DNA of 64,000 nt. It comes from Candidatus Latescibacterota bacterium. GTDB lineage: Bacteria; Latescibacterota; UBA2968; UBA8231. The stretch is from assembly GCA_965248265.1 (NCBI GenBank), contig CBDFJF010000001.1, positions 2,112,001 through 2,176,000 on the forward strand. Direction: 5' to 3'. Positions 1 through 6,583 of the stretch are shown here, piece by piece. Made by a program: the position numbers and the translations under genes. The notes beneath the pieces were generated by a model, which was given only the letters and a program-made list of their open reading frames with translations, was not told the origin of the DNA and did no database searches. Numbering within the stretch: the stretch's first letter is position 1; each line of letters starts with the position of its first letter.

Positions 1-219
1 GGGCTGGGAAGCGACGCGTTCTCGAGTTTCGAGCGCTTCGAGCAGAACGTCGAGCGCAGTGAAGCCGAAGCCGAGGCCCACACCGAGATCGCCGGCGAAT
101 TGGCCGAGGTCGAGCGCCAAGCAAACCGTCTCGATCGCGAGGTGGCCGTGGATGATGAGTTGCGGGCGCTGAAGGAAAAGCACAACGCCCAAACGGGCGG
201 GGACCAAACACGAGACTGA
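1..219 (+). CDS. pspA: PspA/IM30 family protein, C-terminal part (truncated by window start)
   Basis: Frame 1 reads GLGSDAFSSFERFEQNVERSEAEAEAHTEIAGEL...VDDELRALKEK to TGA at 217-219, the typical PspA C-terminus. Not in the ORF track. Confidence 0.85.
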   Translation, partial: GLGSDAFSSFERFEQNVERSEAEAEAHTEIAGELAEVERQANRLDREVAVDDELRALKEKHNAQTGGDQTRD

Positions 220-226
220 GGCCGCA

Positions 227-751
227 ATGCGTCTGCAATGGATACTGGAAGGCGGTATCAAACGACTGGGGGGCCTGTTTCTGCTGGTTTGGGCCATTCC
301 CCTGTTCGCCGTGGGACTGGGACTTATGCTCTGGGGTCTATCGAAGGCTCTGACCTTGGCCATCCATACCGGCCCGCCTGGTTTTCTTCTGAGCGGAAGT
401 CACTTCGAGCACCCGCTGTCCATCGGCGTCGCCCTCGTCGTGCTGAGTGTGTTAATGTGGGTCGGATCTCGCCGGCTGGACGCAGCCGTACGCACGTTGA
501 AGGATCGCCGCGTTGAAAATGCTTTGTTGCGTCTGGCGCAGCAACGCGGTGGTCGGCTCACGGTCATCGAAGCTGCCGCGGAAACCGGTTACACCGCCGA
601 GGAGGTGGCCCTCGTGCTCAGAAGGTTGTCAGAGCAGGGCTTTGTCGAGATCGAGGTCACGGATGCCGGTGTGATGGTGTATCGTTTTCCCGAAATCGCC
701 TACGCGCCAACACCGGGTGAGAGCTGGACGAACAGAATAGAATCGGCGTGA
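227..751 (+). CDS. Two-TM membrane protein with C-terminal winged-helix domain
   Basis: Two hydrophobic segments, then LLRLAQQRGGRLTVIEAAAETGYTAEEVALVLRRLSEQGFVEIEVTDAGVMVYRF (wHTH pattern); starts 7 nt after pspA. Confidence 0.8.
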   Translation: MRLQWILEGGIKRLGGLFLLVWAIPLFAVGLGLMLWGLSKALTLAIHTGPPGFLLSGSHFEHPLSIGVALVVLSVLMWVGSRRLDAAVRTLKDRRVENALLRLAQQRGGRLTVIEAAAETGYTAEEVALVLRRLSEQGFVEIEVTDAGVMVYRFPEIAYAPTPGESWTNRIESA

Positions 752-769
752 ACCGCGCCGGGAGGACTC

Positions 770-928
770 GTGTCCGCGTCGGACAACGAGGTGAAGGAAC
801 GCCTGACCCAGATTGAGAGACGCCTGACGGACACGCAAGAAGTGATGATCGCCTTGAACGAGAAAATGGATCGTTGGGAGGAAGGTCCCCGAATCAGGAG
901 CGAGCAATGGTCGAAGTCATCTTCATAA
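770..928 (+). CDS. Small soluble coiled-coil protein (52 aa)
   Basis: GGAGGA at 761-766, GTG start; MSASDNEVKERLTQIERRLTDTQEVMIALNEKMDRWEEG...; aligns with the C-terminus of 907-1134. Below the ORF-track size cutoff. Confidence 0.7.
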   Translation: MSASDNEVKERLTQIERRLTDTQEVMIALNEKMDRWEEGPRIRSEQWSKSSS

Positions 929-1134
929 GTATAGCCATCGCCGTCGTCATCCTCAGTGCCGGTGCTGTAAAGTGGATGAACATCTATATGCATAGGCGGC
1001 CGACGGCTGCCGATGCCGGTATCGATGAACTCGGGCAGCGCCTCGATGTCATCGAGGGAAGACTCCGCGATATCACCGACGTAATGATTTCGGTCAGCGA
1101 AAAGGTAGATAGCATGGACCAGACGCGGCCGTAG
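907..1134 (+). CDS. Single-TM plus coiled-coil protein, PspB-like architecture (75 aa)
   Basis: AGGAG before ATG 907; N-terminal TM followed by ELGQRLDVIEGRLRDITDVMISVSEKVD. Confidence 0.75.
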   Translation: MVEVIFISIAIAVVILSAGAVKWMNIYMHRRPTAADAGIDELGQRLDVIEGRLRDITDVMISVSEKVDSMDQTRP

Positions 1135-1153
1135 ACGAACAGGAGAGCAACGG

Positions 1154-1306
1154 ATGGATATTCTGTGGAAAATCGCCGGGGTCGTCCTACTGATCGGCGG
1201 CGCGATCATCGCCTTCAAACTGATCGCCAGTATGTTGATGTTTGTCGTCACCGTGGCGGTCGCCGGAGGGCTCATTTACGGCGGTTACCGGTTGCTGACG
1301 CGTTAA
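1154..1306 (+). CDS. Small two-TM hydrophobic protein (50 aa)
   Basis: AGGAG at 1141; MDILWKIAGVVLLIGGAIIAFKLIASMLMFVVTVAVAGGLIYGGYRLLTR; its TAA overlaps the kinase ATG (TAATG). Not in the ORF track. Confidence 0.75.
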   Translation: MDILWKIAGVVLLIGGAIIAFKLIASMLMFVVTVAVAGGLIYGGYRLLTR

Positions 1307-2697
1307 TGGTGCAGACGGCCGGTACAGAGGACGCCGCCGCGGGCGCTGTCGCGTCAGAGACGGAGGTCTTCTTTCGGCGGGGTATGGCCCTGCTGAAAGA
1401 TGGTCAGCAGGTCGAAGCGAGGGAGGAACTCGAACGCGCCGCCTCTGCCGGCCACATGGAGGCGCACTTTCAACTGGCTCTGCAGTACGCACGCGACGGG
1501 CGGCACCAGCGCGAGATACATAGACGCGCCGTCGAGCACCTGGAAGCGATTCTCGCATCAGCGGACGAACCGGACGGGATCGATACCCTCACCGCTGGCC
1601 TCGATCGGGTTTGTTTCGCCCTTGGCGGTTTGTACGCCGACAGCAACGGAGAGGGATCGCTGCAGCGCGGCATCGAAGTCTACCGCCGCGGGCTGACGAT
1701 CAATCCCCTGTCCGCGGTCGGTCACAGCAGTCTTGGACTCTTGCTCAAGAGGGCCGGGCATTACCTCGGCGCTCTCGGCGAATGCAAGCTGGCCATTCAA
1801 CTCGACCCCGACCACAAGGCGGCCTACACCAGCCTCGCTCAGCTGCTGTGCGAACACGTCGATGCGCAGGATCTGGCCACCGAGTATGCCCACATGATGG
1901 AAGAGTTCGGGGAGAGCGCACCGCGCGTGATCGCGACGTTGTCCATCGAGCTGATGGAACAGGGCCGTGGACAGATGCAGCGGGAAATGTACACGAAGAG
2001 CCACCAACTCAAGAATCTGCTGGGTCTCGTCGGCAGCCGTCTGCGCCGCGTCAGCCGCAAGCTGACGAAACGGGAAAAGGTATCAGCACCATTGGAGGAG
2101 CTCGTCGACGAGGTTGGCGAGGAGATGCACGGCGTCGAAGCGGAGTACGAACGACTCTACGAAGAATGGGTCGGTTTCCTGGCGGCGCTGACGCCGGACA
2201 CCCTATACACCAGCCTGGTGGAACCGGGGCGTGTCGTCGAGCGCGTGCTCGAAGCGCTGAGGCCGCGGGCCGGGGACACGGCACTGAAGTTGAGAACTCA
2301 TGAAGGGGTCCCCCGCATTCAAGCCGACGAGCGACTCCTGCGCGATGTGATTACCAACCTGTGCCTGAACGCCCTCGAAGCGACGGCAGAGCTGGGAGCC
2401 GGAACTGAGATTTCGGTAGGAGTGGGATATGATGCCAGCGCCGGTGTCGTCTTCGTCGAAGTCGAGGACGAGGGCCCCGGGATCGCCCCCGAGTACATCG
2501 ATCACGTCTTCGATCCAGGGTTCACTACCAAGGACAACGGCAGTGGCTACGGCCTGAGCATCGCTCGCCGCATCGCCCTGGCACACCACGGCGATCTCAG
2601 GGTGAAGAGCAAAATCGGGCACGGCAGCGTCTTCCGACTGGACATACCCGTGAACTTCGATGCGGAGGCTGGTCCTCACCTGGGGGAGATCCGGTAA
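1306..2697 (+). CDS. Soluble TPR-repeat sensor histidine kinase
   Basis: N-terminal TPR/Sel1-like repeats, H-box SHQLKNLL, N-box NLCLNA, G1 DEGPGI, F-box FDPGFTTK, G2 GSGYGL; no TM. Start moved to ATG 1306. Confidence 0.9.
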   Translation: MVQTAGTEDAAAGAVASETEVFFRRGMALLKDGQQVEAREELERAASAGHMEAHFQLALQYARDGRHQREIHRRAVEHLEAILASADEPDGIDTLTAGLDRVCFALGGLYADSNGEGSLQRGIEVYRRGLTINPLSAVGHSSLGLLLKRAGHYLGALGECKLAIQLDPDHKAAYTSLAQLLCEHVDAQDLATEYAHMMEEFGESAPRVIATLSIELMEQGRGQMQREMYTKSHQLKNLLGLVGSRLRRVSRKLTKREKVSAPLEELVDEVGEEMHGVEAEYERLYEEWVGFLAALTPDTLYTSLVEPGRVVERVLEALRPRAGDTALKLRTHEGVPRIQADERLLRDVITNLCLNALEATAELGAGTEISVGVGYDASAGVVFVEVEDEGPGIAPEYIDHVFDPGFTTKDNGSGYGLSIARRIALAHHGDLRVKSKIGHGSVFRLDIPVNFDAEAGPHLGEIR

Positions 2698-2698
2698 C

Positions 2699-4123
2699 AT
2701 GGCGCCCACCGAAGCTGCCGGCGTTGTGCTGATCGCCGACGATCAACCAGAGGTACTGGACGTGTTGGCGCAGCATCTGCGCACTCGCGGCAAGCAGGTG
2801 TTGGAGTTTCCCACTGGTGCCCTGCTCGCCCAGCATTTGAATCAGACCGCCGACGCCGTCGAGCTGGTCGTGCTGGATCTCGACTTCGGTGCCGGCGAGC
2901 AGGATGGCATCGCCACCCTCAGGCAGATCAAGCGAGATCGTCCCGACACCCCCGTCATCATCCTCACTGGCAAGGGCAACGTCGACGCCGCCGTCGACGC
3001 CGTGCAGCAGGGCGCGGCTGATTTCATCGAAAAGGACCTATTCGTCGAGGACAAGCTCGAACTGAGCATGGAAAAGGTGGAGCGCATGCTGCAGGTCTTG
3101 CGTGAGAACGCTGAACTGCGCGCCCGCAACCAGACCTTGGACCGCGACAACACGCTCTATCGCTCAGAACTGGGGCTCCGTTACCGCATCATCAGCGACA
3201 GCCCCAAGATTCACAGCATCCTGCGCCAGGTCGAACAGATCGCCAGCGTGCCGCGACCCGTCCTGATCCGGGGCGAGCGCGGCACGGGCAAGGAACTGAT
3301 CGCCGCGGCCCTCCACTACGGCAGCGATCGCGCCGATCGTCCGTTCGTCAAGCTCAACTGCGCGGCGGTGTCGGAATCACTCCTCGAAGCAGAGTTGTTC
3401 GGCCACGAAAAAGGCGCGTTCACCGGCGCCAATGAGGCGCGGCCCGGTCGCTTCGAAATGGCCGATGGCGGCACGCTGTTCCTTGATGAAATCGGTAACA
3501 CCAGCCTGGAGTTTCAGCAGAATCTGTTGCGTGTCATCGAGTACCCCGAGTTTGAGCGCATAGGCGGCAAGCACACGATTCGAGTCGACGTGCGCGTGGT
3601 CGCGGCGACCAATGCCGAACTCGAGGAAGCGATCACGCAGGGCAGTTTCCGAGCCGATCTCTACGATCGACTGCGATTCTCTGAACTGTCGATACCGCCG
3701 TTGCGACAGCGACGCGAAGACATCCGATTGCTCGTCGATTTTTTCGCTGCCGAGATGACGCGGGAAGTCGCCTCGATACCGGCACGCGGCTTCAACCCCC
3801 AGGCGCTGGCCGCCTTGGAAACCTATGGCTGGCCGGGTAACGTCAGAGAGCTCAAGTTTGCCGTCGAAAGGGCCCTGTGCGTGGCGACGGGTGAAGCCGT
3901 GGAGCCGGCCGATCTGCCACCTGAGATCACCATCGGCAAGACCGCCCCGAGCGACCAGACGACAGCCTCCTTCGACGATCAACTGGAAGGACTCGAACGC
4001 GGTATACTGCGACGCGCACTCGACGAGGCCAATGGCAGCCAGAAGAGTGCTGCAACCGCACTCGGCCTCACCTATGACCGCTACCGGCACCTGCTGCGCA
4101 AGCACAGCCTCACCGGCCAGTAG
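2699..4123 (+). CDS. Sigma54-dependent response regulator (REC-AAA+-HTH) with PspF-like AAA+ and HTH
   Basis: REC (ADD...VLDL...TG...EK), Walker [36 protein letters not shown]-terminal [16 protein letters not shown]. Confidence 0.92.
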
Positions 4124-4130
4124 CACCGAT

Positions 4131-4266
4131 TCCCTGCTGAGTAGCTTCGGTGGCGATCAGCGCCACGAGCAACACTATACTCCCTGCTGAGTAGCTTCGG
4201 TGGCGATCAGCGCCACAAGCAACACTACACTCCCTGCTGAGTAGCTTCGGTGGCGATCAGCGCCAC
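4131..4266. repeat. Tandem 50-bp repeat (about 2.7 units), each unit containing the palindrome GTGGCG-ATCAG-CGCCAC
   Basis: Identical 36-mer TCCCTGCTGAGTAGCTTCGGTGGCGATCAGCGCCAC at 4131, 4181 and 4231; the two 14-nt linkers differ at 2 positions. Confidence 0.95.
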
Positions 4267-4331
4267 GCCGTTGGCCCCACCCGCCTTCAGCTGTTTCGTT
4301 ACAATAGCGATAAATCATTCAAGTTTATTAA

Positions 4332-4344
4332 AAACAACAGATTG
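4332..4344 (+). promoter_or_regulatory. Possible IHF site in AT-rich spacer
   Basis: AAACAACAGATTG, one mismatch to WATCAANNNNTTR, located between the repeats and the sigma54 promoter. Confidence 0.4.
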
Positions 4345-4372
4345 TAAGTTTTGTCGGGCAATCAGAATCCTC

Positions 4373-4388
4373 TGGCACAGTCCTTGCC
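4373..4388 (+). promoter_or_regulatory. Sigma54 (-24/-12) promoter for pspA2-TM2
   Basis: TGGCAC-AGTCC-TTGC with GG (4374) and GC (4386) exactly 12 nt apart; AGGAGG RBS downstream. Confidence 0.88.
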
Positions 4389-4452
4389 ATGAGTGTTTTG
4401 TGGACTCGGCCATTGCGGGTCCGTCGGTTTTCGCTAATTGCAGAGGAGGTAG

Positions 4453-5163
4453 ATGATGGTCAAGTCAACGCTGGGTCGAATCGGACACATTCTGTCATCC
4501 AGTGTCAACGACGCTCTGGACCGACTCGAAGATCCGGAGAAGCAGGTGCGTCAACTCATCCGGGACATGGAGGCAGCAATCGAGGACGCCATCCGTTCGG
4601 TGAGTACGGCGGTCGCCGATGAGCGACGGCTTGCCCGTCGCTGCGAAGAGGATGAGCGTCAGGTGAAGAAGCTCGACAAGTTGGCCCGTCGCGCGATCGA
4701 AAGCGGCGACGAGAGTCTCGCCCGCGCCATGACCGTACGTCGACTGGCGTACGAGCAGGCGAGCGCCGTCGATGCCCTCGGCGAAAGCCGCGACACCGTG
4801 ACCAGGCTGAAAACCCAACTCACCGAGATGCGTTGCAACCTGCAGCAGGCACGAGACCGACAAGGCAGTCTGATCGCTCGTATTCGGGCGGCCAGATCCA
4901 TGCCGGGATGGTCGACGACGGCCACGGCTCAGAAGGAAGATCCCTACGCGGACTTTCAGCGTCTTGCGTGCAAGCTCGATCGCAGTCGCGAAGAGCTCGA
5001 ACACCTCAGGGCTGAGGTCGAAATCTTCGAAGAGACCAAGGTGGGAATAGAAGAGGAACAGACCGGCACCGGGGCGGCATTCGAAAGGCAGGTGCGAGAT
5101 CTCGAGCTGAAACGGCGTATCGACGAGGAGATGGATCTGCTGCGACAGAAAGTGGGCACCTGA
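4453..5163 (+). CDS. pspA: PspA/IM30 family protein (second paralogue)
   Basis: LGRIGHILSSSVNDALDRLEDPEKQVRQLIRDME, ARRAIESGDESLAR, IDEEMDLLRQKV. Confidence 0.88.
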   Translation: MMVKSTLGRIGHILSSSVNDALDRLEDPEKQVRQLIRDMEAAIEDAIRSVSTAVADERRLARRCEEDERQVKKLDKLARRAIESGDESLARAMTVRRLAYEQASAVDALGESRDTVTRLKTQLTEMRCNLQQARDRQGSLIARIRAARSMPGWSTTATAQKEDPYADFQRLACKLDRSREELEHLRAEVEIFEETKVGIEEEQTGTGAAFERQVRDLELKRRIDEEMDLLRQKVGT

Positions 5164-5564
5164 TGACTCCTCTACATGTCTCACCCCGTTCGCGACTCGT
5201 TGCCCTCGTACTCTGTTTCTTCGCCGGTTTTCTTGGCGCTCACCGGTTTTACGTCGGCAAGACCGGCACGGCCCTGCTCATGCTGGTCACCTTTGGCGGA
5301 TTTGGTCTGTGGACCCTCATCGATTTCATCCTCATAGGGCTCGGTTCGTTCGCGGATGACCGGGGGTACCTGCTGCTGAGGTGGAGTGTCGAGGAGCCGA
5401 CATCGAGCGTCGAGGTGCCATCTCGGAGTGAGGTGCCGCCCGAACCCGATGTACCCGCCCGACGGGAGCTGGTGACGAGGATGGACCGGATCGATGGTGA
5501 ATTGTGCGACCTGCAATCGATCATGACGAGAATAGACGGGAGACTCGAACGTCCTCGATTGTGA
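5163..5564 (+). CDS. TM2-domain membrane protein with C-terminal coiled coil
   Basis: SRLVALVLCFFAGFLGAHRFYVGKTGTALLMLVTFGGFGLWTLIDFILI is a TM2 motif; TGATG overlap with pspA2. Confidence 0.88.
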   Translation: MTPLHVSPRSRLVALVLCFFAGFLGAHRFYVGKTGTALLMLVTFGGFGLWTLIDFILIGLGSFADDRGYLLLRWSVEEPTSSVEVPSRSEVPPEPDVPARRELVTRMDRIDGELCDLQSIMTRIDGRLERPRL

Positions 5565-5590
5565 GAGGCCCACGCCTACTTGTACCTACC

Positions 5591-6583
5591 TCAAAGATCT
5601 ACGCGTTCACCTGTCCGTGCCGATTCGAAAATCGCCTCTACGATCGCGATGGTGCCCAGTGCGTTGGTCGCAGGAACGGCCAGCTGTTTGTTGTCGAGCA
5701 AGACATCGTGGAAATGTTCGATTGCCGGGGTGAAGGGATGTCGGCCGTCGCCGAAGGGGTAGCGCACTTCGCTATCAGGAGTCTGTACCAATAAATAGGA
5801 ACCGTTGCGGGGGTGGTATGGTTGGGGAACGTTGATGAAACCCTTCTCGCCGTAGATGGCCGCGCCTTGACCACCTGTACCATCCATGGCCATCTGGATC
5901 GTGGCAAAGCGGCCATCAGAGAATTCCGCAACGGCGCTTGTCCGTATGTCGACCCCATACTCTGGATCGATGAGGCAGGCCCCCTGCACGGCGATCGGCT
6001 CTTCACCGAACACGAACCGCGTAAAGGTTATCGGGTAGACGCCGCCATCCAGCAGACCACCACCACCCAGTTCCCTGTTAAGTCGAATGTTATTGGAGGG
6101 ACGCGGGATGCGAAAATCCATGTAGGCGTGTGTGGCCGTGATCTCTCCGATGGCGCTACTGTCCAGGATCTGGCGAAGCTTCAGGGTCTGTTCATGAAAC
6201 AGGAACACGAACGCCTCAACCAGCTTCACGCCGGCACGTTCGCAGCTATCCGACATGCTGGTGATTTCGTCCGCTGACATGGCAAGCGGTTTTTCACAGA
6301 AAACGTGTTTGCCATTCTCGGCAGCCTTGATCGTCCACTCCGCGTGCATGGTGTTGGGGAGCGGGTTGTAGAGCGCGTCGATCTCGTCGCTTTCCAGAAG
6401 GCTTGTGTAGTCATCGCACACGACTGGGATGTCGTGCTTCTTGGCGAAGGCGTCAGCCTTGCTGCGATCTCGGCTGGCGACGGCGGCCAGCTCACCACGA
6501 TCGGTCTCACGAAGCGCGGGGATGAATGATCTTTCGGCGATAGCCGCGGTGCTGATGATGCCCCATCGGATCTTGTTCGGCAT
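5591..6583 (-). CDS. Gfo/Idh/MocA family oxidoreductase
   Basis: IRWGIISTAAIA, GKHVFCEKP, GGGGLLDGGVY. Confidence 0.9.
   Translation of the reverse strand: MPNKIRWGIISTAAIAERSFIPALRETDRGELAAVASRDRSKADAFAKKHDIPVVCDDYTSLLESDEIDALYNPLPNTMHAEWTIKAAENGKHVFCEKPLAMSADEITSMSDSCERAGVKLVEAFVFLFHEQTLKLRQILDSSAIGEITATHAYMDFRIPRPSNNIRLNRELGGGGLLDGGVYPITFTRFVFGEEPIAVQGACLIDPEYGVDIRTSAVAEFSDGRFATIQMAMDGTGGQGAAIYGEKGFINVPQPYHPRNGSYLLVQTPDSEVRYPFGDGRHPFTPAIEHFHDVLLDNKQLAVPATNALGTIAIVEAIFESARTGERVDL

Follow-up and report, generated by a model that had tools for sequence, protein, structure and literature searches.

A Latescibacterota Psp locus is probably a sigma-54 regulon driven by its own two-component system

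How is a phage shock protein (Psp, bacterial ESCRT-III) system controlled in the Latescibacterota, a phylum of which, to our knowledge, no member has been cultured? The question is raised by a gene cluster at the beginning of a 64-kb stretch of DNA from a Candidatus Latescibacterota bacterium (G000:C1:2112001-2176000, hereafter the window). The genome, G000, comprises 7.3 Mb in two contigs, with a completeness of 92%. As far as we know, membrane repair by Psp/ESCRT-III is universal, and three regulatory designs have been worked out, i.e., titration of PspF by PspA, LiaRS and ClgR. Enterobacterial PspF has no receiver domain and is controlled by PspA binding. The original prediction, made from the DNA letters of the window, had read the cluster as a phosphorelay-driven sigma-54 Psp hybrid. 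This reading held, with an intact receiver, invariant kinase boxes and a palindrome shared by both psp promoters. Judged from sequence comparisons, the locus is probably a phosphorelay-driven, autoregulated sigma-54 Psp regulon with a dedicated two-component system, conserved in three Latescibacterota families.

Nine co-oriented, close-set open reading frames (ORFs) fill positions 1-5564 of the + strand in the ORF list of the window, packed as tightly as had been predicted. They encode PspA1, a membrane-anchored winged-helix protein (transmembrane winged helix-turn-helix, TM-wHTH), three small proteins of 52, 75 and 50 amino acids (the last termed TM50), a tetratricopeptide repeat (TPR) histidine kinase, a receiver (REC)-AAA+-HTH activator, PspA2 and a TM2-domain protein. 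All nine predicted genes are present, but the boundary of the set had to be corrected, as pspA1 is cut by the window edge. Only the last 72 of its 231 codons lie at 1-219 (+), and the gene starts 476 bases before the window (G000:C1:2111524). The cluster was taken to end at 5564 because a Gfo/Idh/MocA oxidoreductase gene in convergent orientation follows (5591-6583). TM50 and kinase genes, and likewise pspA2 and TM2 genes, overlap by 1 nt, a single base separates the kinase from the regulator with its ATG at 2699, and the other gaps measure 7-19 bases; between regulator and pspA2 lie 329 bases. Several starts are preceded by Shine-Dalgarno-like sequences. Scans of 1-6000 for terminators and sigma-70 promoters yielded nothing above shuffled expectation that bears on operon structure.

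For comparison, we located related loci with TM-wHTH as the query; all relatives are metagenome-assembled genomes. A TM-wHTH homologue was found in 101 of 168 sampled genomes of the phylum, namely in 49/75 of family f1, 21/22 of f3 and 30/31 of f4, and in 0/39 of eleven other families. A first set comprised 20 kb around the TM-wHTH gene in 16 genomes of f1, f3 and f4. All 16 loci encode pspA, TM-wHTH, TPR kinase and REC activator co-oriented and in identical order. Small proteins bearing a coiled-coil motif (see below), between one and five per locus, were present in 14 loci, and a TM50 homologue was detected by phmmer in four. A second set contained 41 loci, one genome per species, with some genomes overlapping the 16. 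Here, five core components (pspA, TM-wHTH, coil protein, TPR kinase and REC-PspF) followed in order in 34/34 loci of at least 18 kb; the other seven loci were cut by contig ends. TM-wHTH came directly after pspA throughout (16/16 and 41/41). The nine genes had been predicted as one set: the core operon is conserved as such, whereas pspA2 and TM2 adjoin it only in this genome.

Both effectors belong to the PspA/IM30 family. Against a PF04012 gathering cut-off of 33.9 bits, PspA1 scored 148.1 (E 9.2e-43 for the full 231 aa) and PspA2 (4453-5163, +) 91.3 (E 1.7e-25); the fragment encoded at 1-219 alone matched PspA_IM30 with E 1.1e-4. Orthologues of PspA1 in the 16 loci are 57-71% identical.

The psp promoters are the second line of evidence. 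The sole perfect sigma-54 match of the window, TGGCACagtccTTGC at 4373-4387 (+; -24 TGGCAC, -12 TTGC), lies 66 nt before the pspA2 ATG, where a promoter driving pspA2 and TM2 had indeed been predicted. A second perfect match, TGGCACatcccTTGC, precedes pspA1 outside the window (G000:C1:2111413-2111427). Both leaders thus carry TGGCAC-N5-TTGC with GG and GC 10 bases apart, and G000 has one rpoN, which qualifies both elements as predicted sigma-54 promoters. Among relatives, a strict -24/-12 element was located 60-115 bases before pspA in 12/16 loci, and the other four had GGTAC-N5-(T/A)TTGC variants. With a relaxed pattern, a sigma-54-like promoter was found before pspA in 41/41 loci; by our own estimate, assuming equal base frequencies, about 2% of 260-base stretches should contain this pattern by chance.

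Upstream of both promoters we found the same type of palindrome. The pspA2 leader contains a 50-bp tandem repeat of 2.7 copies (4131-4267) with one palindrome TGGCGatcagCGCCA per repeat copy, at 4151-4165, 4201-4215 and 4251-4265, and an AT-rich stretch separates these from the promoter. They are the only three exact palindromes in the window, where 0.30 would be expected. The repeat unit was found at no other place in the genome, and its shared part reached about 2.7x the flank depth in short-read unitigs of the source sample (four best runs, one sample). At pspA1, an exact palindrome TGGCGcaaacCGCCA and a one-mismatch copy TGGCGgcgcaCGCCt, 22 bases apart, are positioned 78-114 nt upstream of the promoter. 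Out of 164 sigma-54-like sites in G000, just two have TGGCG-N5-CGCCA 40-260 nt upstream, i.e., those of pspA1 and pspA2. Moreover, paired TGGYR-N5-YRCCA palindromes lie upstream of the relatives' pspA promoters in the 16-locus set. We therefore propose the palindromes as candidate binding sites of the activator.

The pspA2-TM2 pair forms a unit of its own. PspA2 was identified in a genome search as a divergent paralogue, 37% identical to PspA1. The gene behind it (5163-5564, +), which shares one base of its start with the pspA2 stop, encodes a 133-aa membrane protein with a TM2 domain (PF05154, residues 8-56, 73.1 bits against a cut-off of 27.9, E 2.1e-20) and a cytoplasmic tail with a divergent coiled-coil motif. 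Orthologues of pspA2, 41-44% identical, are found in genera g17, g18 and g13, far from the main operon there. A TM2 protein follows pspA2 in 10 of the 11 fetched loci of other genera, and the eleventh locus ends at a contig edge. A sigma-54-like element precedes pspA2 in all 11, with a palindrome 100-130 bases farther upstream in five. From these separate loci we conclude that the place of pspA2-TM2 beside the operon is peculiar to this genome; the unit itself is a predicted, conserved member of the regulon.

G000 holds three pspA genes. The third lies in a cluster with DnaJ-domain, CesT_Tir_1, amine oxidase and spermine synthase genes (G000:C2:3393653-3398588; L103 1654-6589), and the genome-wide site scan detected no palindrome-bearing sigma-54 promoter for it. 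This cluster context had already been named in the main text of Ravi et al. 2024 (PMC11237479).

We then asked which regulator could act at these promoters. The activator gene extends from 2660 or 2699 to 4123 (+, about 474-487 aa), with the ATG at 2699, one base past the kinase stop, as the likely start. In Pfam, 2660-4123 matched Response_reg (residues 23-127), Sigma54_activat (1.5e-66), AAA_lid_14 and HTH_8. The protein is hence built of a REC domain, a long helical linker, a sigma-54 AAA+ domain with GAFTGA and a Fis-type HTH. A long coiled linker between REC and AAA+ is typical of regulators whose receiver represses the protein when unphosphorylated, e.g., NtrC1 and DctD. The acidic pair, the phospho-acceptor Asp, the Thr and the Lys of REC are conserved in 17/17 orthologues. 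Compared with E. coli PspF, the activator shows 47% identity across PspF residues 8-325, and it also matched the AtoC, NtrC and ZraR models end to end. In E. coli PspF, W56 is the contact to PspA; at the aligned position, Trp occurs in 0/17 orthologues, which have A, R, K, S or G instead. Taken together, the protein has the features of an NtrC-family sigma-54 response regulator and not those of a PspF equivalog (TIGR02974), given its score, its N-terminal regulatory domain and the replaced W56.

Its partner is encoded directly upstream (1306-2697, +) and is a soluble TPR histidine kinase of 463 aa. Pfam gave TPR and HATPase_c (3e-22) matches, and the best models for the catalytic half were AtoS and ZraS. 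In the AlphaFold2 (AF2) model (predicted local distance difference test, pLDDT, 82.7), about ten TPR-type helices (18-184) precede a dimerization and histidine phosphotransfer (DHp) hairpin (187-295) and a catalytic domain (300-450); the model contains no transmembrane (TM) segment. H233, which lies in a YT-x-x-H-x-x-KN box, is the same in all 17 aligned sequences, and so are the N, G1, F and G2 boxes. With H233, these boxes and the modelled DHp hairpin, the protein is assigned to the histidine kinases of the HisKA/HATPase_c type.

We propose a chain of steps that has good support from family knowledge. The kinase would phosphorylate the receiver Asp. As a result, the AAA+ ring would be released or assembled at the palindromes and would open the sigma-54 complexes, so that the operon and pspA2-TM2 would be transcribed by sigma-54 RNA polymerase. 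Since both units would be transcribed, the system would induce its own kinase and regulator alongside the PspA effectors.

What, then, would the signal be, and how would PspA be held at the membrane? The TM-wHTH gene directly behind pspA1 (227-751, +) encodes 174 aa with two N-terminal TM helices, a cytoplasmic winged helix and a conserved C-terminal tail. In its AF2 model, for which 15 orthologues were used (pLDDT 82.8), a pair of long hydrophobic helices leads into a winged helix of the order helix-strand-helix-helix-strand-strand. No Pfam family reached gathering score; there were weak matches to MarR_2 (1e-3) and HTH_Crp_2. The top Foldseek match was ESCRT-II (3cuq_A; 59 columns, root mean square deviation 1.9, 27% identity), followed by MarR, ArsR and CodY repressors, all generic winged helices and all with E > 1e-3. 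In NCBIfam, the C-terminal end of CdvB was matched weakly (E 0.092). We rejected a specific likeness to ESCRT-II, because its scores were no better than those of ordinary bacterial repressor folds; with the ESCRT-II subunits and the C-terminal winged helix of CdvB, TM-wHTH shares the fold class only.

These repressor folds, together with the weak MarR_2 and HTH_Crp_2 matches, could also indicate that TM-wHTH is a DNA-binding protein which, tethered to the membrane, represses or co-activates the psp promoters and is freed or activated by membrane stress. Also, the product of the partner gene in the wider family is a zinc-ribbon protein of TFIIB type. However, the third helix of TM-wHTH is net acidic in 15/15 sequences and the domain is net negative in 14/15, which argues against DNA binding and fits protein binding better. 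The psp promoters revealed no second conserved motif either, and the Foldseek E-values all exceed 1e-3. A role at DNA is in our judgement quite improbable.

The small proteins downstream of TM-wHTH share one motif. The first (770-928, +) is a soluble protein of 52 aa with a GTG start after GGGAGGA, the second (907-1134, +; alternative start TTG at 874) has 75 aa with one N-terminal TM helix, and TM50 (1154-1306, +) consists of 50 aa with two hydrophobic helices, its stop sharing one base with the kinase start. In phmmer searches, the 52-aa and 75-aa proteins and the tail of the TM2 protein matched each other. Alignment revealed a heptad-patterned helix common to 21 sequences (consensus RLxxLExRLTDxQDVMIxxxEK, RLDELERRLTDIQDVMIAIDEK), which is joined to one TM helix, two TM helices, a TM2 domain, larger CBM9-like proteins or nothing. 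We hence describe the small proteins as a new, sequence-defined motif family. The separate small adaptors originally predicted may form a membrane partner set of the locus' own; the 52-aa coil, the 75-aa protein and the TM2 tail are paralogous in this motif.

In genera g17 and g18, genes downstream of pspA2-TM2 encode proteins of 477-558 aa with a CBM9-like domain and at least one coiled-coil motif (L131 7458-9134, - strand; L133 10789-12222, + strand); G000 has no such CBM9-like motif proteins. The 52-aa protein shares its reading frame with TM-wHTH, with the GTG 18 bases past the TGA of the latter (749-772), and a membrane helix that is present in the counterpart of relatives is missing from this copy.

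The 75-aa protein had been called PspB-like, a name that we had to drop. PF06667 matched 0/21 of the motif sequences at E<=1, and hhalign gave a probability of 7.7% against E. coli PspB and of 27.7% against 12 enterobacterial PspB, the latter confined to 19 columns where the TM helix ends. A language-model comparison, as a lead and not a test, gave 0.89 for a Latescibacterota cluster with the automatic name 'Phage shock protein B family' and 0.80 for a cluster with PF06667 in 14% of its members. The likeness to PspB is one of architecture, i.e., an N-terminal anchor with a cytoplasmic zipper-like helix. Across G000, the best PspB match had E 0.39 and lay elsewhere than the locus. PspC (PF04024) gave 0 matches in G000, at its completeness of 92%, and the control search was positive in 7/14 genomes; a recognisable PspC is thus missing, as had been noted originally.

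From this set of parts we derive a possible sensing step. The negative feedback that PspA exerts on PspF in E. coli would have moved upstream to the level of the kinase: the cytoplasmic TPR domain would read the state of PspA and/or the adaptor tails, and recruitment of PspA to damaged membrane would activate the kinase. TM-wHTH and the motif proteins would serve as membrane receptors of PspA and be functional analogues, not homologues, of PspB/PspC, LiaI or PspM. That the TPR domain reads free PspA or adaptor tails and that the winged helix and the motif proteins are PspA receptors, both taken together, we put forward tentatively, as a possibility rather than an expectation. A more far-reaching version, which seems to us unlikely, would see in the locus a self-contained ESCRT-III machine. 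In it, an anchored winged helix would act as in archaeal and eukaryotic ESCRT-III, and interchangeable anchors with a coiled-coil 'address' helix would recruit PspA polymers. The TPR kinase would gauge cytoplasmic PspA or free tails, so that PspA titration would have become a phosphorelay.

Several observations weigh against a phosphorelay-driven Psp regulon. The first concern the activator. PspF (TIGR02974) is its best NCBIfam model, yet the 369.3 bits lie below the curated cut-off of 443.55, and the AtoC and NtrC models scored nearly the same. NtrC-family regulators are numerous, and with 164 sigma-54-like sites in the genome one could imagine a general NtrC-type regulator of other genes that came to lie beside pspA by chance. 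This is extremely improbable, however, considering that order and strand are kept across three families in 16/16 and 34/34 loci and that, genome-wide, the palindrome accompanies the two psp promoters only. The palindrome, for its part, is tied to the activator by position and conservation only. For the kinase, Pfam HisKA found no match, and the H-box was assigned by alignment only. Moreover, 67 of the 168 sampled phylum genomes have no TM-wHTH gene. The wider 2TM-wHTH family counts 2348 representatives at E<=1e-3 (HMMER), and those inspected were named 'hypothetical' and had no Pfam domain; relatives in Myxococcota are suggested by the Atlas. In 27 metagenome loci of this wider family, obtained with six query representatives and many of them short, pspA occurred in none. 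The link to PspA is hence, as far as seen, specific to the Latescibacterota branch.

Genus g17 is a further case. It keeps pspA2-TM2 with its sigma-54 promoter and palindrome, and a search at E<=1e-30 detected no TPR kinase in 2/2 genomes. In G157, of this genus, the activator (73% identity) is without the N-terminal half of REC, including the phospho-acceptor region. The kinase is thus dispensable in at least one lineage, and the G157 regulator and the g17 pspA2-TM2 pair link the regulator lineage to pspA2. The g17 receiver may be a natural truncation, and loss of the kinase perhaps leaves a constitutive activator. At the locus itself (L136, G157:C71:7273-11511; also L131/L132), the PspF-like regulator begins in mid-receiver beside a divergent transporter gene, and no TM-wHTH was found in the g17 loci.

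With an activator without complete receiver, no kinase and a sigma-54-driven pspA2 unit, some other control must exist in g17. One might therefore assume that the logic of E. coli is retained: PspA would silence the AAA+ domain directly, and kinase and receiver would be a second, independent input, e.g., of energy or redox state via the TPR domain. The 47% identity of the AAA+ and HTH part to PspF speaks for this. The Trp aligned to W56, to which PspA binds in E. coli, is however replaced in 17/17 orthologues, and the kinase gene stands beside the regulator in 34/34 full loci. We regard direct silencing by PspA as rather unlikely and keep control by phosphorelay as the preferred reading.

How does the locus compare with known systems? 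With the PspF-PspABC systems of E. coli and Yersinia it shares the PspA effector, a sigma-54 promoter with upstream activator sites and the activator lineage. As in E. coli, small membrane proteins are encoded after pspA. In E. coli, pspG is the second transcription unit of the Psp regulon, and such an orphan unit is here represented by pspA2-TM2. In contrast to E. coli, the receiver is intact, a soluble kinase is predicted to be co-transcribed, no Trp stands at W56 and no member of the PspB or PspC families is present. Also, the regulator genes lie inside the psp operon and are not divergent from it.

ZraSR is an envelope stress system that uses sigma-54. With ZraSR, AtoSC and NtrBC the locus has the kinase and regulator class in common, as the catalytic half of the kinase and the regulator match their models. 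Their kinases, however, are membrane-bound or of PAS type and their targets are not PspA, whereas here a cytoplasmic TPR array is combined with two pspA units.

In the Lia system of Bacillus subtilis, an autoregulating two-component system induces a PspA homologue and a small membrane anchor, as described in the main text of Popp et al. 2022 (PMC9239133). The idea of two-component induction with autoregulation is thus shared with LiaRS-LiaIH. The parts are different, i.e., LiaS is a membrane kinase and LiaR a REC-HTH protein that works with sigma-70-type polymerase, with no AAA+ domain, sigma-54 or TPR sensor. Pfam and NCBIfam searches of the nine locus proteins found no LiaF, LiaI or Toastrack domain and no LiaRS-type features. 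We conclude that the locus belongs to none of E. coli Psp, Lia and ZraSR/AtoSC as these are defined.

An undescribed architecture had been predicted. The main texts of both Psp neighbourhood surveys (PMC11237479, PMC9239133) mention no Latescibacterota, Planctomycetes, TPR kinase, receiver-fused PspF, TM2 or anchored winged helix by pspA, although their supplementary data might list such a case. According to the main text of Ravi et al. (PMC11237479), PspF and two-component systems were not targeted by a search of their own. Full-text literature searches yielded no description of a Psp architecture with REC-PspF and TPR kinase. PspA neighbourhoods with flotillin or band-7 proteins are described in the main texts of both surveys, and the f3 and f4 operons likewise hold a Band_7/SPFH protein.

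The locus would thus represent a fourth Psp design, in which a receiver and a soluble TPR kinase govern sigma-54 activation of the PspF type. It would bring along two families without a Pfam model, i.e., the 2TM winged helix and the motif-bearing small anchors, at the position held elsewhere by PspB/C, LiaI or PspM. Moreover, it offers a test of whether PspA feedback is a general principle that acts at different levels of the pathway. With so few parts, and with promoters and sites spelled out, rebuilding the circuit in E. coli should be feasible.

Some related loci contain additional genes. In families f3 and f4 (L038-L043, L046-L048), the operon has three more genes behind the small ones and ahead of the kinase, which encode an ECF sigma factor, a membrane protein of 201 aa without Pfam match and the Band_7/SPFH (flotillin-like) protein. 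L039 has an insertion of an ISL3 transposase right behind the TM-wHTH gene. In G000, a 77-aa ORF with no homologue among the 16 related loci encodes one hydrophobic helix and is flanked by an NHL-repeat protein gene and the pspA1 promoter (G000:C1:2110961-2111194; L002 10961-11194). Finally, outside the Latescibacterota, 2TM-wHTH genes are typically followed by a gene whose product, about 230-255 aa long, contains two Zn_ribbon_TFIIB domains. This arrangement was seen in five of seven loci inspected (L105, L107, L109, L114 and L124), three of them confirmed by Pfam, and 2TM-wHTH together with Zn_ribbon_TFIIB is an uncharacterised two-gene module.

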